64,000 nucleotides of DNA from a phage. The stretch is from the NCBI GenBank assembly GCA_020279385.1, contig GCA_020279385.1_4762.1; one strand, written 5' to 3'. How positions within the stretch are numbered: position 1 is the first letter of the stretch; each line of letters starts with the position of its first letter. Below are positions 2,102-64,000 of the stretch, one piece after another. The notes under the pieces are model-generated. The model was given only the letters and a program-made list of their open reading frames with translations, made no database searches and was not told the DNA's origin. A program made the translations under genes and the position numbers.

Positions 2102-2884
2102 ATGGCAGTAGTTGGTGTTCCTGGTTGGATTGGAAGTTCAGCCGCAAATGAAACAGGGCAACGATGGATGAGTCAAGCGGCTGGTCAATTAAGATTGGGT
2201 GTTCCTTGCTGGATGAGTCAATTTTCAGGTCGCTCGCGAGAAATTATTCATACACTTGGCGCAGACCATAACTTCAATGGTCAGTGGTTCCGTGATAGAT
2301 GCTTTGAGGCAGGTAGTACACCTATAGTGTTTAATATTACAGGTGATTTGGTATCATATTCTAAAGATGTTCCTTTATTCTTTATGTACGGAGATACACC
2401 GAATGAATATGTTCAGTTGAATATACATGGCGTAGCGATGTATGGTCGTGGCGGGAATGGCGGTAGCAAGGGTCCTGGATCAGCCGGGGGGCATTGTATT
2501 CAAAATGATATTGGTGGGAGACTAAGAATTAATAATGGCGGAGCTATTGCTGGTGGCGGTGGCGGTGGCGGTGGCGGGTATTATTCTCCTTTTCCACAAA
2601 TGAGATTAACCTTTGGCGGTGGCGGTGGGCGTCCGTTTGGTGCGCCGGGCGGATCTATTAATATGCAATCAGGCGCAACTGCTGGTACTCTTTATGCGCC
2701 CGGATCGGGGTCCGTGAACGGTATCTATAATGGCGGAAGCGGTGGTGAGGTAGGTGCTGCTGGAGGTAGATGTAATATTCGTGGTCAAGGTTCTGAATAT
2801 AATGGCGGTGATTCTGGATATGCTGTTATAGGGTCTTCTCCAACGTGGCAAAATCGCGGAGCTATTTACGGACCGGCTGTTTAG
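2102..2884 (+). CDS. 38: gp38 receptor-binding adhesin (T2-type) with glycine-rich motifs
   Basis: N-terminus [13 protein letters not shown]...[22 protein letters not shown] matches T2/T6 gp38 from memory; poly-Gly runs ([20 protein letters not shown]) separated by variable segments; SD GGAG upstream. Confidence 0.85.
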
Positions 2885-50214: not shown

Positions 50215-50244
50215 AATATAATCCTCTCGTTGTTAAGTGGGAGT

Positions 50245-50273
50245 ATCTTACTACTCCCGTTTCATCATGTCAA
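50245..50273 (-). promoter_or_regulatory. Early promoter with inverted repeat around -10 (PeSL-like)
   Basis: rc TTGACA-17nt-TAAGAT; GGGAGTA/TACTCCC arms. Confidence 0.65.
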
Positions 50274-50836
50274 GCGTTAAATGACTTTTGGATCTCTTTC
50301 AGTTCAGCTACTTTATCGGCGCTGAATTTAGCGTAGGTATCATGTCGAATAATTTCACTTTCAAGAAAGGTTTCCAGCCGAGATCTATTTTCAATAAGGA
50401 ACTCTTTCAGGTCTTCCGCGTTCTTGATAAAGATTTTATTGTCAGTAATGTCATCTTCAATCGCAAAGGAGATAGAGCGAACTTTACCAAACAAGTTAAT
50501 CAGATCTTCCAGCGATTCTTCTTTCTTAACTGGTTTCATTTCTTCAAACTGCTTTTTAGTGATTCGTTTAAAGTATTTGCGCTCGCTTGCGTCAATCATG
50601 ATTGACGCGCCCTCATAATCATGAGTTTCTACCAAATACACTTTACCCATAACATTAACCGTAAGAACTTTAAAGCCCCTGTGAAGCACACCATACAGGA
50701 ACTTGTTATGTTGTGGATAGCGTTTGATAAATTCCTCTGCGGACTCAGCATTACGGAAAGTGTAATAACGACCTCGTTCAAAAACAGCATCATTTGAAGA
50801 CTTAGCTGGATACAATTTATACGTTTTCTGTACCAT
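50270..50836 (-). CDS. Paralog family A-related protein (188 aa)
   Basis: RGFKVLTVNVMGKVYLVETHDYEG and ERKYFKRITK shared with the 49036 gene; SD GAGGA. Confidence 0.55.
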   Translation of the reverse strand: MVQKTYKLYPAKSSNDAVFERGRYYTFRNAESAEEFIKRYPQHNKFLYGVLHRGFKVLTVNVMGKVYLVETHDYEGASIMIDASERKYFKRITKKQFEEMKPVKKEESLEDLINLFGKVRSISFAIEDDITDNKIFIKNAEDLKEFLIENRSRLETFLESEIIRHDTYAKFSADKVAELKEIQKSFNA

Positions 50837-50850
50837 AATATAATCCTCTA

Positions 50851-51123
50851 TCATTTCACTAATTGAACAGCACGAAACAGAATGCGGTCACACGGAAGAA
50901 GCATAAATTCCCAACGCGGATCAAAGTCTTTAGCGGTATATGTTTTCCCATCAACCGAGATTTCACTTACATAACCAATAGGTGACACTTTAAGAACAGT
51001 AAACCCATTCTTGATGACTTCGTAGGTATCTTTCAATCCTTCGTAGTCATCCTCTAGGAAGTCTTTACGTGCTTGCTCAGATTTAAAAACATAGGCCACA
51101 CCGGATTTAAACATCTTACGCAT
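50851..51123 (-). CDS. Paralog family A-related protein (90 aa)
   Basis: NGFTVLKVSPIGYVSEISVDGKTY module; SD AAGGAG before ATG at 51123. Confidence 0.55.
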   Translation of the reverse strand: MRKMFKSGVAYVFKSEQARKDFLEDDYEGLKDTYEVIKNGFTVLKVSPIGYVSEISVDGKTYTAKDFDPRWEFMLLPCDRILFRAVQLVK

Positions 51124-51154
51124 TGTTGATTCTCCTTCTTGATTAGATGGGAGT

Positions 51155-51183
51155 ATTTTACTACTCCCATTTCTTATTGTCAA
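51155..51183 (-). promoter_or_regulatory. Early promoter with inverted repeat around -10 (PeSL-like)
   Basis: rc TTGACA-17nt-TAAAAT; GGGAGTA/TACTCCC arms. Confidence 0.65.
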
Positions 51184-51186
51184 CTA

Positions 51187-51660
51187 CTATCTTAATCTTT
51201 GTATAAATTGTTTCTTATACTTCTTCGTGATCTCTTCTCTTGTATCCGCGTCACAGTAATCGAAACCTTCTGCGTCCATAATAGCAACCATCTCCGAGCG
51301 TGTCAAGCGTGAAAATCGTTTTACTTTATCAACAGCATATTGAGGATGTAAATGATTGTTGGTGTAGTCTCCTTTGATGTAATTAACATAGTTTGTAGCC
51401 CAAACAACGAAATCAGCACCTAAAGCACCAACACCAAACCGTTTAAAGTCTCCGGTCAACGATCCTTCTAGGCGGTTGCAACACGAATGAAGCAATCCCC
51501 TTACGCGGCCTTGCCCTTTCCCATCTAGATCATGATCATGGTCAAGATGGTTTTTGCTCATATCCTCAAAAAGTGGCAATTGACAAAGGGGGCAAATGCC
51601 CCCCTGTTTTTCGAATAGTTCTTGTTTATACTCTTTAGCACTCTTAGCAGTCAGTAACAT
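51187..51660 (-). CDS. 49: Endonuclease VII gp49 (Holliday junction resolvase)
   Basis: Zinc-binding CPLCQ...HLDHDHDLDG...VRGLLHSCCN and C-terminal identity to T4 gp49; SD GGAGGGTGA. Confidence 0.9.
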   Translation of the reverse strand: MLLTAKSAKEYKQELFEKQGGICPLCQLPLFEDMSKNHLDHDHDLDGKGQGRVRGLLHSCCNRLEGSLTGDFKRFGVGALGADFVVWATNYVNYIKGDYTNNHLHPQYAVDKVKRFSRLTRSEMVAIMDAEGFDYCDADTREEITKKYKKQFIQRLR

Positions 51661-51684
51661 AAATTCACCCTCCAAAGAAGGTAT

Positions 51685-51966
51685 TTAACCATTAATCTTG
51701 TTTTTGACTACAAAGGATCGGAACTCATCAAAACCACCTATATAATCACCATTATAGAAAATCTGCGGCATGGTGGCAATAACTTCTACCCCTGCGCGAT
51801 CCTGAATGTCGGCAATGATAGAATCAATCTTTACCGGACGACCGTTTTCGTCCACACCATCATTAACCGGAATGTAGATGTAAGGGATCTTACGCGATTC
51901 ACAAAGGCGCTTTGCATTCTGGCAATACTTACAGTTATAACCTTCAAAACCAAAAATTTCTACCAT
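51685..51966 (-). CDS. nrdC: Phage thioredoxin/glutaredoxin NrdC
   Basis: CKYCQNAKRL active-site region and PQIFYNGDYIGGFDEF match T4 NrdC pattern. Confidence 0.8.
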   Translation of the reverse strand: MVEIFGFEGYNCKYCQNAKRLCESRKIPYIYIPVNDGVDENGRPVKIDSIIADIQDRAGVEVIATMPQIFYNGDYIGGFDEFRSFVVKNKING

Positions 51967-51967
51967 G

Positions 51968-52723
51968 TTATACCTCATTCAGTTCTATATCAAGTTCATT
52001 TTCAATAATATAGGCATTAACTGCCCGTGCCGCATCATCTTCTGTGTCAAATCTTCCTATATACACACCGCGAACTTTAGCACCGTAATTACCTTGTTTT
52101 GGTACTTTGTAAACGTATCTATGACGGGAACTTGCTGCTTTTTGGAGCTTCTTGCCATATTCAGACTTTGCATATTCTATATCATCAATCTCGTTTATAC
52201 AAGACCTATCACCAAAATGTTTCAACGCTGCAAGATTATATGCATACGCCGCACCGATCTCGGAGGGAAAATATCCTAAATGTATAGACTTCCCATCCAA
52301 CATTATTGCACCAGTCCAATAACCTTTATTCTTATTAAACGACACACCTTTATACTTCGAATATGTTTTGCATTTGGTCTTGCTCATATTCATATTATTT
52401 TGTTTGCTTGTCGTCTCTCTAAGGTTTTCAATGCGGCTATTATAACGATCTCGGTCTTTATGATCTATATACTTAGGACAATGACCATGAAACATATGAT
52501 AGATAACACGGTGCATACGTTCGTATCGCTCGCCAGTCCATACAATACGATACCCATCGGGGGTATCACTTCCAGCTAATCCGTTTATAACACCTTTTCG
52601 GTGCGGGTGAATCTTCCACCTAAGAAAACCATCATCATAATAAAACCGTGAATGATATAAATCATACAAACGTTTATCTTCTGGAGTCTTGTGTATAACA
52701 TCATATTTTAACATTGGTGACAT
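51968..52723 (-). CDS. HNH endonuclease with AP2 DNA-binding domains (homing endonuclease-like)
   Basis: HNH motif (IDHKDRDRYNSRIENLRETTSKQNNMN); two AP2-like segments (YKGVSFNKNKGYWTGAI..., KVRGVYIGRFDTEDDAARAVNAY). Confidence 0.8.
   Translation of the reverse strand: MSPMLKYDVIHKTPEDKRLYDLYHSRFYYDDGFLRWKIHPHRKGVINGLAGSDTPDGYRIVWTGERYERMHRVIYHMFHGHCPKYIDHKDRDRYNSRIENLRETTSKQNNMNMSKTKCKTYSKYKGVSFNKNKGYWTGAIMLDGKSIHLGYFPSEIGAAYAYNLAALKHFGDRSCINEIDDIEYAKSEYGKKLQKAASSRHRYVYKVPKQGNYGAKVRGVYIGRFDTEDDAARAVNAYIIENELDIELNEV
51968..52723 (-). mobile_element. Free-standing HNH-AP2 endonuclease gene inserted between nrdC and dam
   Basis: Homing-endonuclease architecture in an intergenic position of conserved genes. 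Confidence 0.6.
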
Positions 52724-53516
52724 AAACTTCCTTAGTATCGGATTTTTTACCCCCGCTACGATCTAAACAATATGTTTTATCCAGTTCAACAACAGAAACA
52801 TCATTACGTTCGATAAAATCAAGCAAATGGTTGTTAACTTTCCCTTTGTGGTGAGTAACATTGCTTAATCCAAACTTAGTACCGCTAGACATTAATGATT
52901 CTATCCACATGTAGAATTTAATCTCTTCTTCTTCACTCCAGAACTTATTATATTCTGCCGACGTGATCCAATATGGCGGATCAAGGAAAACGAAATCATC
53001 CGGCAAGATCTCGATCTCGTCATAGCGACCAGACGTAAAACTGATTCGACCGTCTTTGTTTTCTTCCTTAAAATTCAGGACACGCTCTACCGCGTTTTCG
53101 TTAAAAGTCCGGCGACCAAAATTAGCATTAAATTCTCCCTTCCGGTTATGGCGGTTAATGTTGCTAAAACTGTGCTGAATCAGAACAAACAGAGATAGCG
53201 GATCTGGATTCTCGTTATACTTCTTGCGGAATGCCATGTAAGCATCTTTATCATCACGAGACAAATCATTTTCGGCAATAATCCGCTTGATCGTAGAAAC
53301 CGGATCAGGACACTCGTCAATCGCTTTGTACGCGTCAATTAAGCGGTGATCATAGTCATTCGCCAGAACATCCCCTTCGACGTACAGAGACACGCTCAAG
53401 CCGCCACAAAAGGCATCAACAAAGCGGTTATAGTGCTTAGGGAAATACTTACTAACACCTGGCAATAACTTTTCCTTATTGCCAGTATAGGGAATTAAAC
53501 CTAATGCTTTCTTCAT
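52701..53516 (-). CDS. dam: DNA adenine methyltransferase (Dam-like, N6-adenine)
   Basis: SAM-binding FxGxG (DAFCGGLSVS) and catalytic DPPY (FLDPPYW); 271 aa. Confidence 0.85.
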   Translation of the reverse strand: MKKALGLIPYTGNKEKLLPGVSKYFPKHYNRFVDAFCGGLSVSLYVEGDVLANDYDHRLIDAYKAIDECPDPVSTIKRIIAENDLSRDDKDAYMAFRKKYNENPDPLSLFVLIQHSFSNINRHNRKGEFNANFGRRTFNENAVERVLNFKEENKDGRISFTSGRYDEIEILPDDFVFLDPPYWITSAEYNKFWSEEEEIKFYMWIESLMSSGTKFGLSNVTHHKGKVNNHLLDFIERNDVSVVELDKTYCLDRSGGKKSDTKEVYVTNVKI

Positions 53517-53947
53517 TATCCCTTCCTCAAATAAGTTCGCTCAATCTCTACCAGTTCGAAAAATTCATCCCAATCACACGGAAAGTTGCAGTTTCCAAAA
53601 TGGTCTTCGTTATAGAGTTCTTTACCGGATGGCAGCTTAATATCTGTTACAGTATACCAACCGCAACAATCGCAATCACCCTCAGCAACAGAAACCTTCG
53701 TAGGAATTTGCATCATTGCTAGATAGGTCGGTACGTCAGACTGTTCAAAGATCATGTAACCTTCATGGTCAAACGAGACAAAATTGTCATCACCCAAAAA
53801 AGGAATGTAATGGTCATAATCGGTTACAGGTTGACCGTGCAATTCCCACTCTACAATTTTAACATTACCGCTAAACTTGATACCCATAATGTCAACAAGA
53901 AAATGAGTATCGTCAATGTAAATCTTACTAGGAGTTGGATAAACCAT
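53516..53947 (-). CDS. Hypothetical protein (143 aa), Cys cluster
   Basis: ORF coupled to dam. Confidence 0.55.
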   Translation of the reverse strand: MVYPTPSKIYIDDTHFLVDIMGIKFSGNVKIVEWELHGQPVTDYDHYIPFLGDDNFVSFDHEGYMIFEQSDVPTYLAMMQIPTKVSVAEGDCDCCGWYTVTDIKLPSGKELYNEDHFGNCNFPCDWDEFFELVEIERTYLRKG

Positions 53948-53957
53948 TATATAATCC

Positions 53958-54254
53958 TCATATCTCAGAGAATAGAATCTCTGTTAGCTTCACTGACTGC
54001 TCTCTGAATGTTAGCGTATACTCGAAAGGAAAGTCAACACCTAATTTCAGAAGAGAATAGCCTACCGCCTCTTTATGCTTATCGGTTAGGGCGATCCTAA
54101 CCAATTCCCGTTGAATCTCTTTAGGCGGTGAATGGATAGTAACACGGGTATCATGCAATGTCCAGTCACCATTACGAATCAAGATTAACGGGTTATCATC
54201 ATTGAAGATCACCGACCCCTTTCCGGTCGGTGAGTGTTTTATACTAATCATCAA
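53958..54254 (-). CDS. Hypothetical protein (98 aa)
   Basis: ORF on early strand. Confidence 0.5.
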   Translation of the reverse strand: MMISIKHSPTGKGSVIFNDDNPLILIRNGDWTLHDTRVTIHSPPKEIQRELVRIALTDKHKEAVGYSLLKLGVDFPFEYTLTFREQSVKLTEILFSEI

Positions 54255-54465
54255 ATTCTAAGAAATATTCTGGAACGATATACCCGTTAAAGTCATTGCA
54301 CTTATAAAAATGTGGTGCATTTAATGCTGGATGAGCATTAGTAAAGAGTTTACCCTCTAGAAACAGAATGTAATTAATAGGTCTAATACCTACAGAATCA
54401 GGGTCTAAACCTTTTTCTTTCAGTTCAGCCAGCGTTAAAACTCGTCCAGATCGTAACTTAGCCAT
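54244..54465 (-). CDS. Hypothetical protein (73 aa)
   Basis: ORF on early strand. Confidence 0.5.
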   Translation of the reverse strand: MAKLRSGRVLTLAELKEKGLDPDSVGIRPINYILFLEGKLFTNAHPALNAPHFYKCNDFNGYIVPEYFLEFDD

Positions 54466-54751
54466 GATTTACCCCTAATTCATCAAGATTATGTCGCAGC
54501 ATTTCAGAGTATTTTTCTACTTCCTTGATCTTAGTGTGGATCTCCACGATCTCATCTTCACTATCAGATAGTTTAATGGCAATCGCGAGCGTGCTTTTAC
54601 CAGCTTTCATAGTCTCTTTCCGTTCAACCAATAGATCCGCGTGTTTCAATAGCAATTCTTCACGTTGAACATAAGCGACGGTCAAAGCCTCATCAGCAAT
54701 TTCTAAAGCGTTTTCAGCGACACCAACAACCATTTTACGAGTAGACAGCAT
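54458..54751 (-). CDS. Hypothetical protein (97 aa)
   Basis: ORF on early strand. Confidence 0.5.
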   Translation of the reverse strand: MLSTRKMVVGVAENALEIADEALTVAYVQREELLLKHADLLVERKETMKAGKSTLAIAIKLSDSEDEIVEIHTKIKEVEKYSEMLRHNLDELGVNHG

Positions 54752-54765
54752 AAATTCACCTCACA

Positions 54766-55074
54766 TTATTTCACGTTAACGCCGTCATCAATCCAGCCGA
54801 CGCTATTTGGTTTAACAGTTTTACCATAGGATGCATACTTAATCAAGCATGGTTTAACATCATTATCAAATCTTCCTAAACGTACTCCCAAATCAGGAAT
54901 ATCCATGTATGCGGCTTTATATCCCCATGTACCGTATTCAGAATCAATCTCAACCGGACGGCCTTTAAAAGCATACACTACACCGTGACGGTCAACGATA
55001 ACATAGCGATAGCCAGCCGGAAGATACACAGTTTCGCCGTAAACTTTAACTGGAGTAGCAGAAGAGATAAACAT
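54766..55074 (-). CDS. Hypothetical protein (102 aa)
   Basis: SD GAGGA before ATG at 55074. Confidence 0.55.
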   Translation of the reverse strand: MFISSATPVKVYGETVYLPAGYRYVIVDRHGVVYAFKGRPVEIDSEYGTWGYKAAYMDIPDLGVRLGRFDNDVKPCLIKYASYGKTVKPNSVGWIDDGVNVK

Positions 55075-55108
55075 AATATAATCCTCACATCGTTCATTTG
55101 ATGCGGTC

Positions 55109-55137
55109 ATTATATGATAACCGCATTTTCATGTCAA
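55109..55137 (-). promoter_or_regulatory. Early promoter with inverted repeat around -10
   Basis: rc TTGACA-17nt-TATAAT; GCGGT/ACCGC arms. Confidence 0.6.
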
Positions 55138-55144
55138 CAGTTTT

Positions 55145-55567
55145 TTAAAAATCTTCTTCCGGTTTATATCGACCGTCATCGACTGGTTTTGGACTGAATC
55201 CTTTATGCGTGCGCGGCTTCGCTTCCGGTTTACCAGCAATCATCAAACCAAAACATTTCAGCCCCTTATAACACATAACAATATCAACCACGATCCACGT
55301 TATAGGCCATAAGATTGCAGCAATACAAAATGCTCCTGTATCGACCTCTTTGGTGTCCTTGTCGAATCTGGCGTACAAGCAGAATACTAGATACGAGATC
55401 ATTGCACCAGTAGTCCAGATATAAAGCACATTAACAATATCTTGTGTTGTCACATTATCCTCCTTACATGTCTTGCAGTGCATAAAAGCATTTTTCTTCA
55501 TAGTCATAGAAAATGTCAAAGTATGCTTTTTCCACATACTCGCCATTAATCCAAGCGGCAGTAACAA
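55145..55567 (-). CDS. Membrane protein (up to 140 aa; start uncertain)
   Basis: Two hydrophobic helices; overlaps upstream ORF, true start probably internal. Confidence 0.45.
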   Translation of the reverse strand: MLLPLGLMASMWKKHTLTFSMTMKKNAFMHCKTCKEDNVTTQDIVNVLYIWTTGAMISYLVFCLYARFDKDTKEVDTGAFCIAAILWPITWIVVDIVMCYKGLKCFGLMIAGKPEAKPRTHKGFSPKPVDDGRYKPEEDF

Positions 55568-55742
55568 TCAGAGTGGTCCAGTTAGATCCGCTCTCAACGG
55601 TAAAGGTTTTAATACCCAGCTTCGCTGCCAAGTCGAACGCAAACCGGACGCAACCACGGCAGGAAGTGATATTGGAAGTTTTTATTTTAAAGCCACCGCG
55701 AGTTTTAGAAATTTCTACTTTAGCGAAAGACAGGTTGCTCAT
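55464..55742 (-). CDS. Hypothetical protein (92 aa)
   Basis: SD AAGGAG upstream. Confidence 0.55.
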   Translation of the reverse strand: MSNLSFAKVEISKTRGGFKIKTSNITSCRGCVRFAFDLAAKLGIKTFTVESGSNWTTLIVTAAWINGEYVEKAYFDIFYDYEEKCFYALQDM

Positions 55743-55784
55743 TTTGATTCTCCTTAAGAAAGTGTGTTTCGTTTTGATGTGTGT

Positions 55785-55813
55785 AGTATAGGGGATACGT
55801 GATCCCCTGTCAA
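55785..55813 (-). promoter_or_regulatory. Early promoter with spacer palindrome (PeSL-like)
   Basis: rc TTGACA-GGGGATCACGTATCCCC-TATACT. Confidence 0.65.
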
Positions 55814-55821
55814 CAATTTTT

Positions 55822-56085
55822 TTATGATTTTAGTGAATTAACCACTACATCAAAATGATGTACAGAGCACACCCTACGAAACACATATTCATCATGTTTC
55901 GGAATCGCCCCCAACCGCTTTATTTCGCTCGCTGACACGATAAACCGTTTATCAGGTGCATTTACCTTATATGCTTCAACAACGCACGGAAAACGCGTTT
56001 TAGAGAGTTCGGGATAGTTTTCTGACTCCATCAGGACAATGAATACCCTATTACATTGATTGTAGAATCCGGTTTTTGATTTCAT
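55822..56085 (-). CDS. Hypothetical protein (~87 aa; start uncertain)
   Basis: ORF on early strand. Confidence 0.45.
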   Translation of the reverse strand: MKSKTGFYNQCNRVFIVLMESENYPELSKTRFPCVVEAYKVNAPDKRFIVSASEIKRLGAIPKHDEYVFRRVCSVHHFDVVVNSLKS

Positions 56086-56392
56086 CAAGTTTTCTTCTCT
56101 GTGAAATTCGTGCAATCTTCCTTTCATGATTTCGTTGGTTCTTGTCTTCACAGTTTACCCACTCAACAAGGTCTTTGCCTAACTCGAAAGCCCATTCTCG
56201 GTCCTGCTTTACGTTTTGTAGGTATGGACTTTCCGACACTCGACGAAGTGATCTTGTCGTAACAAGAATGATCCCAGGAATGTTCGGATGTTCCTTTCCA
56301 TATACAATAGGACGCGAGTCACTATCAATACCCTGTAAGAAGGTGTATCCTGAATCACTTAGGATCATATACATTTTCATTTCATCCATCAC
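56051..56392 (-). CDS. Hypothetical protein (113 aa)
   Basis: ORF on early strand. Confidence 0.5.
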   Translation of the reverse strand: MMDEMKMYMILSDSGYTFLQGIDSDSRPIVYGKEHPNIPGIILVTTRSLRRVSESPYLQNVKQDREWAFELGKDLVEWVNCEDKNQRNHERKIARISQRRKLDEIKNRILQSM

Positions 56393-56646
56393 AGTTTCCT
56401 CAACCAGTTATTAAAGCGAGTAAACCATGATGCTTTTCGTGCTTCTTTTACTTTATGTGCCCGCAAACCACTGAAACACCATTCATAATCATCACTGAAA
56501 CATGATTCAACAGGAACACCCGCATTTCGTAGTTCTCTGGTCTTTATCATGAATCCTTGACATAAGGGGCGACCTTCAACAATGATAGGAAGTTTAACTT
56601 TTTCCATGAAAGTATACCCAGCACGGTCAATAATTTCAATCTTCAT
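56389..56646 (-). CDS. Paralog family B member (85 aa)
   Basis: GYTFMEKVKLPIIVEGRP...AGVP motif shared with 56665 and 58115 genes. Confidence 0.55.
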   Translation of the reverse strand: MKIEIIDRAGYTFMEKVKLPIIVEGRPLCQGFMIKTRELRNAGVPVESCFSDDYEWCFSGLRAHKVKEARKASWFTRFNNWLRKL

Positions 56647-56664
56647 AATATAATCCTCAATTGA

Positions 56665-56868
56665 TTACACTTCCCAGGCTTCTTTGCTAAGAAAACACCA
56701 TTTATACTCAGGAGAATAACCTTTAATCGGTACTCCAGCTTTTTGTAATTCCTGCGTTTCAACAACATAATCATGCCCATACGGTCGGCCTTCCACGATG
56801 ATAGGAAGTTTAACACCTTTCATGAAAGAATATCCACCATCGTCAAAAATTTCAATTTTAATTTTCAT
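56665..56868 (-). CDS. Paralog family B member (67 aa)
   Basis: GYSFMKGVKLPIIVEGRP...AGVP motif. Confidence 0.55.
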   Translation of the reverse strand: MKIKIEIFDDGGYSFMKGVKLPIIVEGRPYGHDYVVETQELQKAGVPIKGYSPEYKWCFLSKEAWEV

Positions 56869-56891
56869 TTTACATTATCTCCATAGTTCTT

Positions 56892-57113
56892 TCAATCAAT
56901 ATCAATTTCACCAGCACGAACATCTAGGATAAGATGCGGTAGGTGTATGCAATTTTCCCAACCAATGCGCTTCATTTCTTCTACGGTAACGTAAGCCCAC
57001 CCGTTCGCTGTAATAAAGTCTACTTCAACCTTGAGAGGAAAGCAAGACTTTTCTATGTCTTCAAATCCGATAATGTGTTTTGTCGTTGAATATGGAATAT
57101 ATCCGGTGATCAT
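56892..57113 (-). CDS. Hypothetical protein (73 aa)
   Basis: ORF on early strand. Confidence 0.5.
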   Translation of the reverse strand: MITGYIPYSTTKHIIGFEDIEKSCFPLKVEVDFITANGWAYVTVEEMKRIGWENCIHLPHLILDVRAGEIDID

Positions 57114-57571
57114 TTTGTGATCTCCTTATACTCAACACACCATAAGCGGGTAGCCCATGATAAACGCTCATAACGCTGGCAGAAATTGGACCATAGATAT
57201 TGTGTACCGTCTTGCATGGTTGAAATATGCGTTTTCTCACCTAATTTCACGAAAGAAGTATTCGATTTTGTGATCTCGACCGGAGTATATCCGAAAGCGG
57301 GTTCCAACTCAACATCTGAACTAAATGCCAATTTAACAGAATTTGTTTTCCTGACCGCTGTCCGGTTTCCTTCTGGGTATAGCACAGCAGGTTTAGCGCC
57401 TAAGCGGATAAACTCAGTGTTTTTAATAAACAGAATATCATGATAACCGTCATATTCCGACACTTCCATAGTAACAGGAAAATCGATATGTGCTAAACCT
57501 GGTAGATCTCGCATATCATGAAATGTAGCCATCAACTTTTTCATCTTGTATTCCTCACTCTTCTGTTTCAT
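57110..57571 (-). CDS. Hypothetical protein (153 aa)
   Basis: ORF on early strand. Confidence 0.55.
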   Translation of the reverse strand: MKQKSEEYKMKKLMATFHDMRDLPGLAHIDFPVTMEVSEYDGYHDILFIKNTEFIRLGAKPAVLYPEGNRTAVRKTNSVKLAFSSDVELEPAFGYTPVEITKSNTSFVKLGEKTHISTMQDGTQYLWSNFCQRYERLSWATRLWCVEYKEITK

Positions 57572-57752
57572 TTCTTTTATATGGTACTATAACAGGATTA
57601 ATACAGCAAGCACCAATTACGTTATGAGCACCACAATTTAAGCATTTATAATCATGGAACTTATTAAGGAATCGCCCGAACTCATAACCGACTAACGCCG
57701 CGTGTACTTGAGTCTCGATCTCATCCATATCAGCCAATGTTTTAACCTTCAT
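57555..57752 (-). CDS. Small Cys-rich protein (65 aa)
   Basis: CLNCGAHNVIGACC motif; SD GAGGA before ATG at 57752. Confidence 0.5.
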   Translation of the reverse strand: MKVKTLADMDEIETQVHAALVGYEFGRFLNKFHDYKCLNCGAHNVIGACCINPVIVPYKRNETEE

Positions 57753-57762
57753 AATATAATCC

Positions 57763-58053
57763 TCAAATACTGGTTTTGCGAAGATGGTCATTACATGCTT
57801 TTAATGCATCAGTCGCGGTGTCATAGCGAGTATTATCATAGCACCAGTAACCATCTGTCAACTGATAAATTAATCCATCCTTTTTAGCGTCGATGAAAGA
57901 CAATTCTTTGAAAGTTTCTACTTTCTTTGCTGATACTCCACGGTCACGGCGTTTATAGAGTTTAGCTAAAATGCGTTCAGCTTGTTCCTCTTTATCGCCA
58001 GACAGATCTCAGATGATGTTTCTGATATGCTTGATTAATTGTTCAGTGGTCAT
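57763..58053 (-). pseudogene. Early ORF interrupted by in-frame TGA at codon 15 (pseudogene or read-through candidate)
   Basis: Promoter and SD AAGGAG intact; ATG...14 codons...TGA (58009-58011) then 81 further in-frame sense codons. Confidence 0.5.
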
Positions 58054-58083
58054 ATTTGATTCTCCTTAGTTGGTATGGTTATC

Positions 58084-58111
58084 ATTATACGGGGATTTCT
58101 CCCCGTGTCAA
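58084..58111 (-). promoter_or_regulatory. Early promoter with spacer palindrome (PeSL-like)
   Basis: rc TTGACA-CGGGGAGAAATCCCCG-TATAAT. Confidence 0.65.
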
Positions 58112-58114
58112 CAA

Positions 58115-58336
58115 TTAAATGATCTCTGCTTCACCGTTAAGGAAGAAAGACCATGTTTTGTTAGGATAACGAAGCGCCCACGATTCAGCAGTTTTAACAC
58201 CAGCTTCGAACAATTGACGGCTGGTTACTTTAGCCATACCATCTTCGATGGCAACGTTTTCAATAATCATCGGGTACTTAGCGCCACGCATGAAACCGAA
58301 GCCAGCGGAAGATTTGATAATTTTAACAGTTGCCAT
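58115..58336 (-). CDS. Paralog family B member (73 aa from ATG)
   Basis: GFGFMRGAKYPMIIEN...AGV motif; SD AGGAG. Confidence 0.55.
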   Translation of the reverse strand: MATVKIIKSSAGFGFMRGAKYPMIIENVAIEDGMAKVTSRQLFEAGVKTAESWALRYPNKTWSFFLNGEAEII

Positions 58337-58375
58337 TTTTGATTCTCCTAGAAAGTGTCGTGTTTCGATGGGTGT

Positions 58376-58404
58376 ATTATGCAATAACACCGGATCGCTG
58401 TCAA
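58376..58404 (-). promoter_or_regulatory. Early sigma70-type promoter
   Basis: rc TTGACA-17nt-CATAAT. Confidence 0.55.
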
Positions 58405-58423
58405 CACTTTCTAAGAAAAATTT

Positions 58424-58708
58424 TTAAACTAATCGAATATAACCAAGAATTTCAGCGCCTTTAGCCAGTCCTAAAACTTCCCATTCAAGGTCGCCGTAGT
58501 CATAATTTGCAACCATCAACTGACCATTTTTCATGCAGCAATCATGAGAGAAAATTTGCCCCGCATAAACTACGATAGTAATAAACTTTCCTGATTCTGG
58601 CGGTGTGGAAGACAAAGCGACCATATGACCATTCAGCTTAGTAACCAGTGATGGAACAATAAAATTCGGGCTTACCTTAATACCGTTAAATTCGTTTGTG
58701 TCTTTCAT
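58424..58708 (-). CDS. Hypothetical protein (94 aa)
   Basis: ORF on early strand. Confidence 0.5.
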   Translation of the reverse strand: MKDTNEFNGIKVSPNFIVPSLVTKLNGHMVALSSTPPESGKFITIVVYAGQIFSHDCCMKNGQLMVANYDYGDLEWEVLGLAKGAEILGYIRLV

Positions 58709-59055
58709 GCCAGACCTCGCAAAACACTAATAGCATAATCATGCTGGTTATTCATAATATCAATTGCATTGTGATAACGAGCTAAACCATCAAGGATAAA
58801 TTCTTGTTTATCCTGTTTCAGTTTGGTATCACGCGCAGCCATAAGAGCATCAAGAACAGGTCCAAAGTGATTATCTAATTCATCTTCGGTTGCAATGTTT
58901 CCTATTGCCTCGTCGATCCGTGATTCTAATGCTTGCTTTTCGTTGATCACTTGCTGGGTATATTCCAACACATCAAGAATATCGCGGGTAACGTCGCCAT
59001 GATAAGGTATTCCCGCATGAAGATGATCAATTAATCGCTGAATATCAATGTTCAT
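58705..59055 (-). CDS. Hypothetical protein (116 aa)
   Basis: ORF on early strand. Confidence 0.55.
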   Translation of the reverse strand: MNIDIQRLIDHLHAGIPYHGDVTRDILDVLEYTQQVINEKQALESRIDEAIGNIATEDELDNHFGPVLDALMAARDTKLKQDKQEFILDGLARYHNAIDIMNNQHDYAISVLRGLA

Positions 59056-59390
59056 TTGTAACCCTCCTCTGAAAGCACATCCCAGATCGTTGAGTCAAGA
59101 TGCATTAAATTCCACATAATAGAGTCATAACTACCGAAGCCAGAAGTAAAAATTACATCACACTGGCGATAGGTCTTATGAAAATCGGTGGCTGTCTCTG
59201 CATCAATCGGCATATCGTCACCTGAAAGCACCAGACATTTAAGAATCATAACTCTGTTAGCCGTTGGCGCTTGCTTAGTCTTTTCAGCATATTTTTCGAT
59301 GATCCGTTTTGCCTTTTCTTCTTTGATACGTCCAGACCAAATCCGGTTTCGGTATTGATTCATAATAATTTCAATCACATCATTTTGCAT
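59052..59390 (-). CDS. Hypothetical protein (112 aa)
   Basis: ORF on early strand. Confidence 0.55.
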   Translation of the reverse strand: MQNDVIEIIMNQYRNRIWSGRIKEEKAKRIIEKYAEKTKQAPTANRVMILKCLVLSGDDMPIDAETATDFHKTYRQCDVIFTSGFGSYDSIMWNLMHLDSTIWDVLSEEGYK

Positions 59391-59589
59391 TCTTCACGGT
59401 CTCCATAATGGTTTTGTAAGCCAGTTTAAGATGATCACCGAAAAACTTTGCGGTGTTACCCTTCGGATCGCGGAGCATGGTTTCTACGATCTCATCGGCA
59501 GTAACAATTTCTCCTTTCTTTGCTGAATGTTCTACCATATACTTCAAAGTTTCTTCGGAAGCAAGTGCTGCCGCTACTGGATTAATCAT
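59380..59589 (-). CDS. Hypothetical protein (69 aa)
   Basis: ORF on early strand. Confidence 0.5.
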   Translation of the reverse strand: MINPVAAALASEETLKYMVEHSAKKGEIVTADEIVETMLRDPKGNTAKFFGDHLKLAYKTIMETVKNAK

Positions 59590-59619
59590 TTTTGATTCTC
59601 CTTTGTTTTCGATGTGTGC

Positions 59620-59648
59620 ATTATGCTATACCCTATTCCGGTTGTCAA
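59620..59648 (-). promoter_or_regulatory. Early sigma70 promoter (part of repeated terminator-promoter module)
   Basis: rc TTGACA-17nt-CATAAT directly downstream of the terminator hairpin. Confidence 0.6.
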
Positions 59649-59652
59649 CACC

Positions 59653-59684
59653 TAAAAACGAAAAAGCCACCCTTTCGGATGGCT
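59653..59684 (-). terminator. Rho-independent terminator
   Basis: - strand RNA AGCCAUCC-GAAA-GGGUGGCU then UUUUUCGUUUUU; near-identical to the module at 46543-46574. Confidence 0.7.
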
Positions 59685-59917
59685 TTTGATTATATTTTAT
59701 TCACGTCCATTTGTATAGTAGTGTTTGAATCGACCTTTGCTAAACTAGTTAAACATAGTAACCAATTCACCATCCCTTTCCAATGATAACCCTTCCTCGT
59801 CTTAGACGGGTCTTCCGATTCGGCAGTAATTGAACACGCGAAAGTATGAGGAAGCCAAATAGTTGTGTTAATGCTAGTATTCTTTTACTTCTGGTATGCA
59901 TCCCACGGTGACTAACA

Positions 59918-60316
59918 TTAAGACAGTCGAGTGAGTTTATAAATTGTTTTAAAACATAGAGCTTTGATATCGTCTAAAACGCTCTGTAACGAGCTATCAA
60001 CATCATTATAAATCTCACTAGCCATTTGCGTTAACTCTTGCAAATAGGCAATTTCGCTAATCTCCTTGCGGACGACCAACGTTGGCTGATAACGACCAGT
60101 GATCCCAATATTGGTTTCAGTGAAATCATCAACCAATTCTTGCATTTCAAGATAGAACTCTTCTAGAGCCTTATGTTTTGCATAAGATCCAGGACCAGTT
60201 ACCCCAAAATGCGCAGAATGCATATAAGTAACACTCATCAGACATTCACCGATAAAGCGGTCAACTTTATTAGCTTTCCCCTCTTCGGACGTCTTTCGAA
60301 AATCACTGAATTTCAT
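59918..60316 (-). CDS. Hypothetical protein (132 aa)
   Basis: ORF on early strand. Confidence 0.55.
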   Translation of the reverse strand: MKFSDFRKTSEEGKANKVDRFIGECLMSVTYMHSAHFGVTGPGSYAKHKALEEFYLEMQELVDDFTETNIGITGRYQPTLVVRKEISEIAYLQELTQMASEIYNDVDSSLQSVLDDIKALCFKTIYKLTRLS

Positions 60317-60606
60317 GTTCTCGATTCTCCATATTTATGCAACATAACAAACTGTTGTGCGGCATATTCCCCCATAATAAAACACTGCTTAGAATCCATA
60401 CATTTACTACGAGCATACATCTTCATAATATGGGCATGAAATTTCTGGCTGGTTTCAATGGAAGGAGATATTTTGTTTACATATACTATCATTGCACCGT
60501 CGAAATAATCAGTAAAGTCACCAGTTGGATCATATTGATCAGCACTGACACTTCCGACCGCAGTCAAGCATATTGCCGCTGTTAGAGTTTTACGAATAAA
60601 TGACAT
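60313..60606 (-). CDS. Small secreted protein (97 aa) with signal peptide
   Basis: N-terminal MSFIRKTLTAAICLTAVGSVSA; preceded by a late-type promoter. Confidence 0.6.
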   Translation of the reverse strand: MSFIRKTLTAAICLTAVGSVSADQYDPTGDFTDYFDGAMIVYVNKISPSIETSQKFHAHIMKMYARSKCMDSKQCFIMGEYAAQQFVMLHKYGESRT

Positions 60607-60639
60607 AAGTCATTCCCCCAGATTAAAAATATTCAGTTA

Positions 60640-60647
60640 TATTTATA
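60640..60647 (-). promoter_or_regulatory. T4-type late promoter TATAAATA (- strand) within a 10-bp inverted repeat
   Basis: rc TATAAATA ~34 nt upstream of ATG at 60606; flanked by CCCCAGATTA/TAATCTGGGG inverted repeat. Confidence 0.5.
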
Positions 60648-60674
60648 ATCTGGGGCTTTATTTATGATTAACTC

Positions 60675-61271
60675 TTATTTGGTAGTACCGTCAATAAAAT
60701 GTTTACGGCACACAGAGACATATTTATCCTCTGCACCAACTTCTATTTGAGCACCATCGCGAATAACATTACCATCTTTATCTACGCGAAGGACCATAGT
60801 CGCTTTCTTGCCACAATGACAAATACCCTTCATTTCGACCAGTTTATCAGCAAATGCCATTAATGCCGCAGATCCTTCAAATAGATTGCCCTGAAAGTCA
60901 GTGCGAAGGCCATAGCACAGTACAGGGATATTTGCATCATCAACAAGCGCACACAAGCCTAAAACATGCTCTTTAGTCATAAATTGGGCTTCATCTACAA
61001 ATACTGCATCTGGACGCCAGCGATCCGTTCTACGCTTACCTAGTGATTCACGATAAACCAAGTCGAAAAGATCATCCGATTTAGTGAAGGTGATCGCTGG
61101 AGCACTTAGACCAATTCGGGAAACGACTTCACTTTCTGAATCTCGATTATCAATCGCTGGCTTAAGAATTAATACTCGCATATCACGTTCGGTATAGTTA
61201 TAAGCACTTTGTAACAGAGAAGTTGATTTGCCAGCGTTCATAGATGCATAGTAGAAATATAATTGCGCCAT
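60675..61271 (-). CDS. tk: Thymidine kinase
   Basis: Walker A YASMNAGKST; zinc-binding cysteines near C-terminus; ~198 aa. Confidence 0.9.
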   Translation of the reverse strand: MAQLYFYYASMNAGKSTSLLQSAYNYTERDMRVLILKPAIDNRDSESEVVSRIGLSAPAITFTKSDDLFDLVYRESLGKRRTDRWRPDAVFVDEAQFMTKEHVLGLCALVDDANIPVLCYGLRTDFQGNLFEGSAALMAFADKLVEMKGICHCGKKATMVLRVDKDGNVIRDGAQIEVGAEDKYVSVCRKHFIDGTTK

Positions 61272-61564
61272 TAATTAATCTCCAAAAATCCAACAAGACC
61301 TAAACCGATATAAGTCCAGATACCAATAAAAAAGATGTTAATGCTCATGGCAAGGATAAACCCTTTCAGAGTTTTGGGATACCCGACCCAATATTCCCGA
61401 CCATCTTCTAACCGGATCAACTTATTTCCTTGCGAGTCCATATCAACCACAACATGTTTATTTCGAGATTGCAATAGATATTGTTTTACAATCTCTACAC
61501 CCGCCATAATAACAATAACGAAAATAAAAGTCCACACAACAAGATTAATGATAGTCTCAAGCAT
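61271..61564 (-). CDS. Small membrane protein (97 aa)
   Basis: Two hydrophobic helices; coupled to tk. Confidence 0.55.
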   Translation of the reverse strand: MLETIINLVVWTFIFVIVIMAGVEIVKQYLLQSRNKHVVVDMDSQGNKLIRLEDGREYWVGYPKTLKGFILAMSINIFFIGIWTYIGLGLVGFLEIN

Positions 61565-61799
61565 TTTCTATCACCTCCACCCAATCAGGTGTTTCCTGAA
61601 AGACTCCTTCACCTTCATGATGGTCGCAACCTTTATTGCTGCAATACATCCACCAATCCCACATTCCCCACGGTAAACGCTGCATATCGTCGTTACAGCA
61701 AGTGAAGATGATAGGCCAACCACATCTAACACATCGGCAGTTTTCCTTCATGTGAGCGGTATTAGACTTCTTCATAGATGACTCCAATATAATCGACAT
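61557..61799 (-). CDS. Hypothetical Cys-rich protein (80 aa)
   Basis: ORF on early strand. Confidence 0.5.
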   Translation of the reverse strand: MSIILESSMKKSNTAHMKENCRCVRCGWPIIFTCCNDDMQRLPWGMWDWWMYCSNKGCDHHEGEGVFQETPDWVEVIENA

Positions 61800-62002
61800 T
61801 TACATTTAGGACAATGCGGTTCTTTAATATAATACCCGTCTGTCTTTGGAACACTAACAGGAGCGGTTTTTATATTGTATTCAGTGAAACAACGAAAACA
61901 AGTTACGTTTTCTACAGACTGACGTTTCACCCAATCACCGGAATATAGATCATTTTTATTTGTCATATTCAACCACCACAATGTTAATGTCTGGAGTAGC
62001 AA
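61772..62002 (-). CDS. Hypothetical Cys-rich protein (76 aa)
   Basis: ORF on early strand. Confidence 0.5.
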   Translation of the reverse strand: MLLQTLTLWWLNMTNKNDLYSGDWVKRQSVENVTCFRCFTEYNIKTAPVSVPKTDGYYIKEPHCPKCKCRLYWSHL

Positions 62003-62411
62003 TATTAATGATCTCTTCTACACATTCCCACTCAAGGCCACCGATACCGCAACCGATTTTAGGAATATAGAAAGGCTGTATAGCACCTTCAAAAACATCA
62101 TTGATAGTCTCAAATCCTTTCAGGATAGCACCATATTCAGCATTTGGACCCGGTCGGAATTGGGTATATAGATTCACCCCGCACCAGTTATAACCATTAA
62201 CTTGATGCGTCCAGACACTAAACCCACCCAGCTTTTCTACCTTACCGCGAGAAGTTTGCTTGTCAATCTCTAACGCTTGCGGGAACTCTTTCGCGATCTT
62301 TGCAGCAATACCAGCACCCATAGTATGAAAACAATTACAACCATGAATTAAATGACCGTTTCCTTGTTTAAACAGGGCGATGAGATCGCCCTTTACAGTA
62401 TCAATAATCAT
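61956..62411 (-). CDS. Macro-like domain protein (ADP-ribose binding/processing family, tentative)
   Basis: Motif LIHGCNCFHTMGAGIAAKIAKEFP resembles macro-like (Macro_2-type) domains; 151 aa. Confidence 0.55.
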   Translation of the reverse strand: MIIDTVKGDLIALFKQGNGHLIHGCNCFHTMGAGIAAKIAKEFPQALEIDKQTSRGKVEKLGGFSVWTHQVNGYNWCGVNLYTQFRPGPNAEYGAILKGFETINDVFEGAIQPFYIPKIGCGIGGLEWECVEEIINIATPDINIVVVEYDK

Positions 62412-62426
62412 AATATAAACCTCTCA

Positions 62427-62786
62427 TTAGTCACGGGAAGACAACCCAGCCATAAAACGGCTTAACAGTGTGTCGCGATAAGCAAAGCATAATTGCTTAT
62501 CAGGGGCAGTATCACAAAGGTTGCGTTTTGTTTTAGCAAAGCTGGCAATACTCAGATCCCATGCTCGATTTTTTCGTTTTTCGTCTCGACCTTGTTTGTA
62601 TGCTTCGTCAAGTTCGAGCGCGATAAAATCGCTACACATGTTATCATCATCACAGAAGGTTTTAATGATCTTTTTGTTGATCTCAAATCCTTTGTATTCG
62701 AACTTTGGATAAGGGCGCTCATTACTAGCAAGCGCACCAGCAGAGAACATCATAGCAATCATAGCAATTATTGTCAACTTTTTCAT
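62427..62786 (-). CDS. Secreted small protein (119 aa) with signal peptide
   Basis: N-terminal MKKLTIIAMIAMMFSAGALA; several Cys. Confidence 0.6.
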   Translation of the reverse strand: MKKLTIIAMIAMMFSAGALASNERPYPKFEYKGFEINKKIIKTFCDDDNMCSDFIALELDEAYKQGRDEKRKNRAWDLSIASFAKTKRNLCDTAPDKQLCFAYRDTLLSRFMAGLSSRD

Positions 62787-62793
62787 ATATTCC

Positions 62794-63384
62794 TCAATAG
62801 CGTTTAGTTTTAAGAATGCCTTTACTCTTTAGATGGTTAGCCTTTTTTAGTACGTCATCAGCATAACCTAAACCGGCTTTATAGTTCCACCCAGCATTGT
62901 AAGAAGCTAGCGCGAGTCGGATATTACCGTTTCGAACATCCAGCCAGTATGCTAACTCATCCATCGCGTAGAATGCAGAAACCTCGCGATTCATGATAAA
63001 GTTGATAGTCTGGCGATCACTCATTTTAACACCGCGCTTTGCATTTTTCGCTTTCACCGTTTTAAGGTAATTTTGAAATAATCCATAAGCATGATGATTT
63101 TTCTTTGGTGCTAAGTTTGCACCCGCGCTTGATTCTTGCCATGCGATACCCGCCAGGATGTGACCTAAACCCTTTCCGTTATAGCGAATATTCGGATGGT
63201 ACTTTTTCAACTTACCGCTTTTCTCGAATTGCTCGCCGTATTGATAGGCGAAATGTAAATTATCTAGTTGGTGTGCTGTAAAGTTGTCTATCGGCGCTTT
63301 TTTGATCGGTGCGCTAGTCGATGCGTGTGTAGCACCAACGGCTAGTGACAGACTCAATAATATCGCTTTTAGAACTTTTAACAT
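62794..63384 (-). CDS. Secreted lytic transglycosylase (SLT domain)
   Basis: Signal peptide MLKVLKAILLSLSLAVGATHA; SLT motifs (AWQESS, GLFQ, SYNAG); SD AGGAG. Confidence 0.7.
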   Translation of the reverse strand: MLKVLKAILLSLSLAVGATHASTSAPIKKAPIDNFTAHQLDNLHFAYQYGEQFEKSGKLKKYHPNIRYNGKGLGHILAGIAWQESSAGANLAPKKNHHAYGLFQNYLKTVKAKNAKRGVKMSDRQTINFIMNREVSAFYAMDELAYWLDVRNGNIRLALASYNAGWNYKAGLGYADDVLKKANHLKSKGILKTKRY

Positions 63385-63418
63385 TAATTTCTCCTGTTTG
63401 GCTTAACTTTCTGATTCC

Positions 63419-63447
63419 ATAATATAGCCAGATCACCAGAAAGTCAA
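63419..63447 (-). promoter_or_regulatory. Early sigma70-type promoter upstream of the SLT gene
   Basis: rc TTGACT-17nt-TATTAT. Confidence 0.5.
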
Positions 63448-63470
63448 GCATTATTTTTAACCAATTTCCA

Positions 63471-63893
63471 TTATTGGTCTACCTTCAAAACAACCGCCGA
63501 CATTTTACCCGCCAGTCGTTTTGGATTCTCTATAATCATTCGGCAGCATAGACCGTGATATGGCTTACCCTCTTCGATTAGATCTACTGTCATCCCGATC
63601 CACATGTTACCGTCAGTAATTTCTAATCGATTCGGTCGGTCTTCCATTTTCAGGAAGTCGAAGATCTCCGGCAAACGAGTTTCTATCTTATTGAATAGTT
63701 CCATTGTCTTATGTTCATCAATATGACGATCGGTTAGACGGTCGATCATATGCGGACTAAAGCGAATGAAAATATACTCACCGTAACCATCATTCAAGCA
63801 CTTTTCTTTGATCTGCGCATTGGTTTTGCGCATTTCGGTTTCGAAGAATCTACGCAGCTTACTACGGCGAACATGTACGTTAATTGTTTCCAT
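63471..63893 (-). CDS. regB: Endoribonuclease RegB
   Basis: Strong identity blocks to T4 RegB (RRSKLRRFFE, RLEITDGNMW, CRMIIENPKRL.GK); start at internal ATG. Confidence 0.9.
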   Translation of the reverse strand: METINVHVRRSKLRRFFETEMRKTNAQIKEKCLNDGYGEYIFIRFSPHMIDRLTDRHIDEHKTMELFNKIETRLPEIFDFLKMEDRPNRLEITDGNMWIGMTVDLIEEGKPYHGLCCRMIIENPKRLAGKMSAVVLKVDQ

Positions 63894-64000
63894 TTTATTA
63901 TCCTTTCTTAAACAAATTGCGAATCCAGTATACAAACGGGATTTCTTTAAACTTGAATTTCTCTATAGTTAATTCTTTAGTAGCAAAATGAATACCATAA

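Follow-up and report, generated by a model that had tools for sequence, protein, structure and literature searches.

The small early gene located on the minus strand at positions 57763–58053 of the analyzed phage DNA (64,000 nucleotides, hereafter referred to as the window) very probably represents an accessory gene hit by a recent spontaneous TGG to TGA mutation in codon 15 (W15opal), that is, an ordinary leaky null allele and not a recoding site. The lesion is one base away from the sense codon found in the relatives, is private to one lineage and is followed by a reading frame that has not decayed, as is characteristic of a spontaneous nonsense mutation.

The original prediction described a PeSL promoter and the Shine-Dalgarno (SD) sequence AAGGAG ahead of an open reading frame (ORF) with an in-frame opal codon at position 15, followed by 81 sense codons without Met, and all of these elements were recovered at the positions given. 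The putative PeSL-type early promoter (58084..58111, minus strand, as are all features of this locus; 12/12 in a consensus scan) comprises the −35 box TTGACA (58111–58106), a 16-nt spacer (CGGGGAGAAATCCCCG) and the −10 box TATAAT (58089–58084). Inside the spacer, a stem-loop (CGGGGA-GAAA-TCCCCG) composed of a 6-bp stem (CGGGGA/TCCCCG) and a GAAA loop is located, and the same promoter sequence precedes the corresponding ORF in phage kvi. The PeSL cassette was introduced and defined for RB49-like phages (PMC2839356). Judged from sequence alone, the locus shows the features of this cassette, namely intergenic placement ahead of an ORFan and the pairing of a GGGG...CCCC stem-loop with a strong promoter of the sigma-70 consensus type. 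The SD sequence AAGGAG (58062..58067), which is invariant in five aligned phages, is followed 8 nt downstream by the ATG start codon (58053–58051). Codons 1–14 of the gene (MTTEQLIKHIRNII; 58012..58053) precede the premature TGA (58009..58011), which is replaced by TGG in relatives, and are followed by codons 16–96 (57766..58008), which are intact, and the natural TGA stop of the 96-codon gene (57763..57765). The next gene of the same transcription unit (57555..57752) encodes 65 aa and possesses its own SD sequence GAGGA, which overlaps the natural stop of the ORF, its ATG being located 10 nt past that stop. The exact sequence of the 65-aa protein is widespread (480 blocks).

Upstream of the promoter (window ~58084–58340), a 73-aa ORFan was found in the window, kvi and KMB43, whereas RB49, JSE and phi1 harbor the adhesin gene 38 at this site. 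In kvi and the window, a receptor-recognition gene adjoins the tail-fibre gene (window 2102–2881). The breakpoint between the differing upstream neighbors falls on the PeSL promoter, which is what shuffling mediated by PeSL would be expected to produce.

The window was assigned to Krischvirus (RB49-like T4-type coliphages), with 97.4% identity to its best match in the phage collection over 12 kb. The 421 bases around the ORF matched 59 phage records, all of them Krischvirus, at 90–99.3% identity, none being identical. Orthologues of the ORF are kvi_218, RB49p078, JSE_00080 and phi1p078, each of which is annotated as an intact hypothetical gene of 291 nt encoding 96 aa. Identity to kvi_218 amounts to 98%, and the translated ORF with Trp15 restored matched the family phrog_14129 over residues 1–96 of 96 (E = 1.7e-53). 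The gene resembles RB49 ORF078, phi1 ORF078 and JSE gp080, representing a family of PeSL-flanked early ORFans of Krischvirus hyperplastic regions, in sequence (94–98% identity), position and downstream neighbors, and differs from them in that the window's copy is broken at codon 15. The probability of 81 open codons was calculated as (0.937)^81, ~0.005, a rough estimate with an assumed stop-codon frequency of ~6%; the open stretch beyond the TGA is not due to chance because it belongs to a frame with 98% identity to the relatives' intact 96-aa genes.

Among 16 distinct intact alleles of relatives, pN/pS was 0.16 and 22 of the 35 variable sites were third codon positions. This substitution pattern indicates that the gene is under purifying selection in the relatives. 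The family phrog_14129 is small in public data, and a profile search of 1.8 billion representatives yielded four further homologues of 96–101 aa. In an alignment of seven cluster representatives, reaching down to 36% identity, Trp15-Asp16 is invariant and the N-terminus is conserved. Since Trp15, Asp16 and the N-terminus are conserved across the homologues, a start downstream of the TGA, which the original prediction had named as a refuting result if found in orthologues, was itself refuted: conservation of the first 15 residues extends to homologues showing only 36–48% identity.

In a five-phage alignment, codon 15 reads TGA in the window and TGG in kvi, RB49, JSE and Phi1, the private base being an A at 58009 on the coding strand (T on the plus strand as opposed to C in relatives). 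When an 80-nt segment of the locus served as query in its TGA and in its TGG version, all 59 related records gained exactly one matched base with TGG; therefore, none of them has the A. Furthermore, TGG was present in 19/19 other loci fetched via neighboring proteins, including pig-gut and other metagenome contigs as well as the nearest local haplotypes FL20, ERZ943789 and GAIO21-1. The nearest allele (GAIO21-1) differs from the window allele by 2 nt over 291 nt. An exact-pattern scan for the TGA allele in IMG/VR and JGI metagenomes returned no occurrence. Position 45 of the ORF, the A of the TGA, is the only base of 291 that was seen in no other allele, and codons 16–96 are free of private substitutions. 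It follows that the lesion is of very recent origin and that decay of the frame behind it has not yet started. Orthologue comparison had been proposed beforehand as a check, and it returned TGG at codon 15 in every related phage record. The recent nonsense mutation listed among the initial possibilities was thus supported, with one G to A change at the third base of the relatives' universal TGG as the sole private change of the ORF.

It is proposed that a G to A transition on the coding strand (C to T on the plus strand, 58009) turned the invariant Trp15 codon into an opal codon. The mutation would affect neither transcription (PeSL promoter) nor initiation (SD sequence and ATG), i.e., mRNA would still be made and ribosomes would still load. 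Release factor RF2 would then terminate most ribosomes after 14 codons, giving rise to a 14-residue peptide and essentially knocking out the gene, while the near-cognate Trp-tRNA(CCA) would misread UGA in ~0.1–4% of ribosomes. Since the ancestral codon specified Trp, such misreading would regenerate the exact wild-type protein of 96 aa. Hence, Trp is the residue presumably inserted at the codon-15 UGA (context AUC-UGA-G), and wild-type protein originating from read-through would be expected at roughly 1/25 to 1/1000 of its normal level. Among the stop codons, UGA is the leakiest one in enterobacteria, with read-through in the range of 10^-3 to 10^-2 (PMC4989110). For E. coli K-12, UGA read-through of ~2% (37 °C) to ~4% (25 °C) was described, with Trp-tRNATrp acting against RF2 (PMC10570021). 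A literature search on the effect of the 3' base on UGA in E. coli provided no usable bacterial numbers.

In T-even phages and enterobacteria, opal (UGA) nonsense mutants are reportedly leaky in non-suppressor hosts (Brenner/Sambrook 1967 and Roth 1970, as cited in PMC4989110). The window's allele resembles these classical mutants in the one-base change from a sense codon to UGA in a gene of a T4-type phage, in termination by RF2 and in misreading by Trp-tRNA at ~10^-3 to 10^-2. In contrast to the laboratory-selected classical mutants, the allele of the window is a spontaneous change in the genome of a wild phage or isolate and affects a presumably non-essential ORFan. Moreover, the original codon in the window specified Trp, and it is for this reason that the product of the leak would be identical to the wild-type protein.

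On the isolation host at least, propagation does not appear to require the gene, given that a phage bearing the lesion was grown and sequenced and that the gene resides in a hyperplastic ORFan region. As a speculative consequence, the downstream 65-aa gene may be mildly affected by the loss of upstream translation (polarity).

With respect to the reality of the base call, a sequencing or base-call artefact would imply that the true codon is TGG and that a systematic error is shared by all assemblies derived from the same reads, for example through methylation-related miscalling at the Dam site TGA|GATC, the phage encoding Dam itself. The TGA allele is indeed unique among all public relatives, the changed base is located directly 5' of GATC (58008–58005), and the window contains private 1-nt indels, one of them near the end of rI. 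Evidence on this question was obtained by means of the 144-aa protein encoded two genes downstream, which is unique to the window genome and for which an exact look-up returned only the Logan contig SRR12199279_73. Logan contigs are k-mer assemblies computed from a run's reads and are independent of the window's own assembly. The contig matched window positions 50217–64000 with 100.000% identity over 13,784 nt, showing neither gap nor mismatch, and it carries the same TGA, no gene being called in that interval. An assembly, polishing or editing slip behind the TGA is therefore unlikely. Almost certainly, the contig and the window share their phage stock or read set, and the contig does not represent an independent biological replicate; hence, this comparison would not reveal base-call errors of a systematic kind or a lysate containing a minority/majority mixture.

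Further observations speak against an artefact. No base differs between the two assemblies across 13.8 kb, homopolymers included, which would be unexpected from noisy reads, and the window-specific SNPs resemble natural divergence. SNPs at GATC ±1 accounted for 7/258 of the window-specific SNPs as compared to 3.7% expected (p = 0.51); this lack of enrichment gives a Dam-site artefact no support. A generally error-ridden assembly was rejected, given that two of the three other disruptions, namely the split kvi_196 orthologue and the 73-aa kvi_215 orthologue, were found in independent samples. Altogether, TGG as the true codon is regarded as unlikely. The sequencing error envisaged in the original prediction thus lost most of its ground owing to the identical k-mer assembly of SRR12199279 and the missing Dam-site signature, and it keeps a small residual probability. 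The window contains 370 GATC sites in 64 kb, corresponding to ~1 per 173 bp (with equal base frequencies, only 1 per 256 bp would be expected), and this densely GATC-bearing phage encodes its own Dam methylase.

Three further genes of the window deviate from those of relatives. The rI antiholin gene (60313–60606, minus strand) contains a private 1-nt insertion at ~60334 (TT to TTT on the plus strand), which shifts the frame from codon 91 and results in a product of 97 aa ending in ...MLHKYGESRT, the product of relatives having 100 aa. The Logan SRR12199279 contig carries the insertion as well and encodes the 97-aa variant; an exact look-up of this variant returned no record. Lesions in rI are the classical rapid-lysis plaque mutants, and the insertion may represent a passage mutation. 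The orthologue of kvi_196 and KMB43 WQN06381 (45942–46480, minus strand) is split by a 1-nt deletion at ~46358, where a T7 run is shortened to T6. This split (59/60 aa and 134 aa) was observed on 9 contigs from several independent samples and therefore represents a circulating allele, not an error. In the kvi_215 orthologue (56665–57113, minus strand), a TGA ends the gene 9–11 codons early (GCT GGA to GAT TGA). Behind the resulting short orthologue (73 aa), an additional gene of 67 aa is located, which is paralogous to the next gene, and this arrangement of 73-aa and 67-aa genes is common to phage FL20 and metagenome contigs.

Regarding the origin of the mutation, W15opal is most likely neutral or passage-associated. 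Selection for the lesion would be conceivable if the 96-aa protein were harmful on the isolation host, e.g., as the trigger of a bacterial defence system, and is given a low probability. In that case, the change from Trp to UGA would lower the amount of protein ~50-fold, and misreading by Trp-tRNA would still supply a trace of the wild-type form. The private rI frameshift in the same genome shows that further changes in accessory genes have become fixed in the stock.

Re-initiation past the TGA, leading to a functional N-terminally truncated protein, for example from the TTG at codon 51 (57903) or from a non-canonical codon, is very unlikely. An in-frame TTG-initiated ORF of 46 aa does exist at 57763–57903, the predicted C-terminal module (residues ~53–95) is set apart from the N-terminal hairpin by a low-confidence linker, and the natural fusion protein P0004 retains this C-terminal part only. 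On the other hand, neither an in-frame AUG or GUG after the stop nor an SD-like sequence ahead of TTG51 was found, and the nearest canonical start is located 36 codons past the stop, which is too far for a termination-coupled restart. Moreover, the truncated protein would lose the motif W15-D16-x-x-G19, which is invariant in the family and lies in the region cut off by any start downstream of the TGA.

Least credible of all is programmed read-through or recoding, in which a short and a long product would be made by design or the TGA would be decoded as Trp or Sec by means of a reassigned code, a suppressor tRNA or a SECIS element. The strong promoter and SD sequence, the long open frame past the stop, the lack of a downstream Met and the role of UGA as a natural read-through codon in E. 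coli would fit this explanation, as would a local RNA fold that is slightly more stable than that of shuffled sequences (z = −1.97). Around the TGA, a fold of z = −1.97 is unremarkable, no bacterial consensus read-through element exists for comparison, and phages featuring UGG possess the same flanking RNA. The stop is missing in every relative, including those only 2–5 nt away, and the homologues encode Trp at codon 15, not Cys or Sec. TGA terminates 37 of the 107 other genes in the window, and among the 118 kvi genes compared, the one other in-frame TGA corresponds to the shared short kvi_215 allele. Furthermore, ARAGORN detected no tRNA gene in the 64-kb window, and Rfam, SECIS included, gave no match in 57600–58200. 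Programmed read-through, reassignment and Sec incorporation were rejected because the TGA is private, serves as a normal terminator and is accompanied by neither a tRNA gene in the window nor an Rfam element in 57600–58200. For the same reasons, read-through as brought forward in the original prediction was not supported, the stop being conserved in no relative.

In the E. coli phage Q-beta, Trp-tRNA brings about programmed read-through of a UGA, by which the coat protein is extended to the form A1. The window shares with this system the codon, the host decoding machinery and the near-cognate tRNA, and in both cases the short product is the default and the long one arises by read-through. Q-beta, however, conserves its UGA and depends on the extended protein, whereas the UGA of the window occurs in none of the 59 related genomes or the other loci and thus does not represent a conserved signal.

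With spontaneous nonsense mutation as the preferred explanation, the appropriate annotation of the locus is a disrupted (pseudo) gene of the ORF078 family, neither a read-through gene nor two ORFs. The allele also provides natural evidence that a conserved, uncharacterized early ORFan is probably dispensable, at least on the isolation host, and the isolate would represent a ready-made leaky knock-out for studying the gene. For genome scans, the case calls for caution, as a fresh nonsense mutation presents itself as an in-frame TGA downstream of an intact promoter and SD sequence; it can be told apart from recoding by testing whether the stop codon is conserved. Beyond annotation, the importance of the finding is small.

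In order to assign a function to the encoded protein, several resources were searched. No significant match was obtained in Pfam, PHROGs returned only the protein's own function-unknown family phrog_14129, and a profile search against the PDB gave no match. A first AF2 model was poor (pLDDT 54), and a second one based on a 7-sequence alignment reached a pLDDT of 79.7. The latter predicts an N-terminal helical hairpin, a low-confidence linker and a small alpha/beta C-terminal module (residues ~53–95). A Foldseek search of this better model against PDB and BFVD retrieved only the GEC-3S orthologue and no informative neighbor. Residues ~58–94 (window 57772–57882) showed weak repeated profile matches to LysM-repeat proteins (whole-protein E-values of 1.6e-05 and 8.1e-04), with the pattern Y-x-[LV]-x-x-G-D...T-x-x-[DE]-A-[LI]-K-x-x-N-x-L. 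These matches of the C-terminal ~35 residues are too weak to be relied on, and Foldseek gave no structural support.

Outside Krischvirus, a homologue with 48% identity is encoded among small early genes of Escherichia phage 2725-N35 (Drexlerviridae; 2501–2791, L031), and further matches of the same profile search were records of two Proteus phages and one Providencia phage. The occurrence of homologues in a T1-like siphovirus (Drexlerviridae) and in Proteus and Providencia phages suggests that this ORFan family moves between unrelated phage lineages. Moreover, P0004, a public protein of 77 aa, consists of the N-terminus of a 69-aa gene (59380–59589) fused in frame to the C-terminal 56 residues of the ORF. 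Its fusion junction is a 13-nt word (TCAGCAAAGAAAG) common to both genes (window 57933 and 59526, minus strand), which points to a ~1.6-kb microhomology deletion in some relative.
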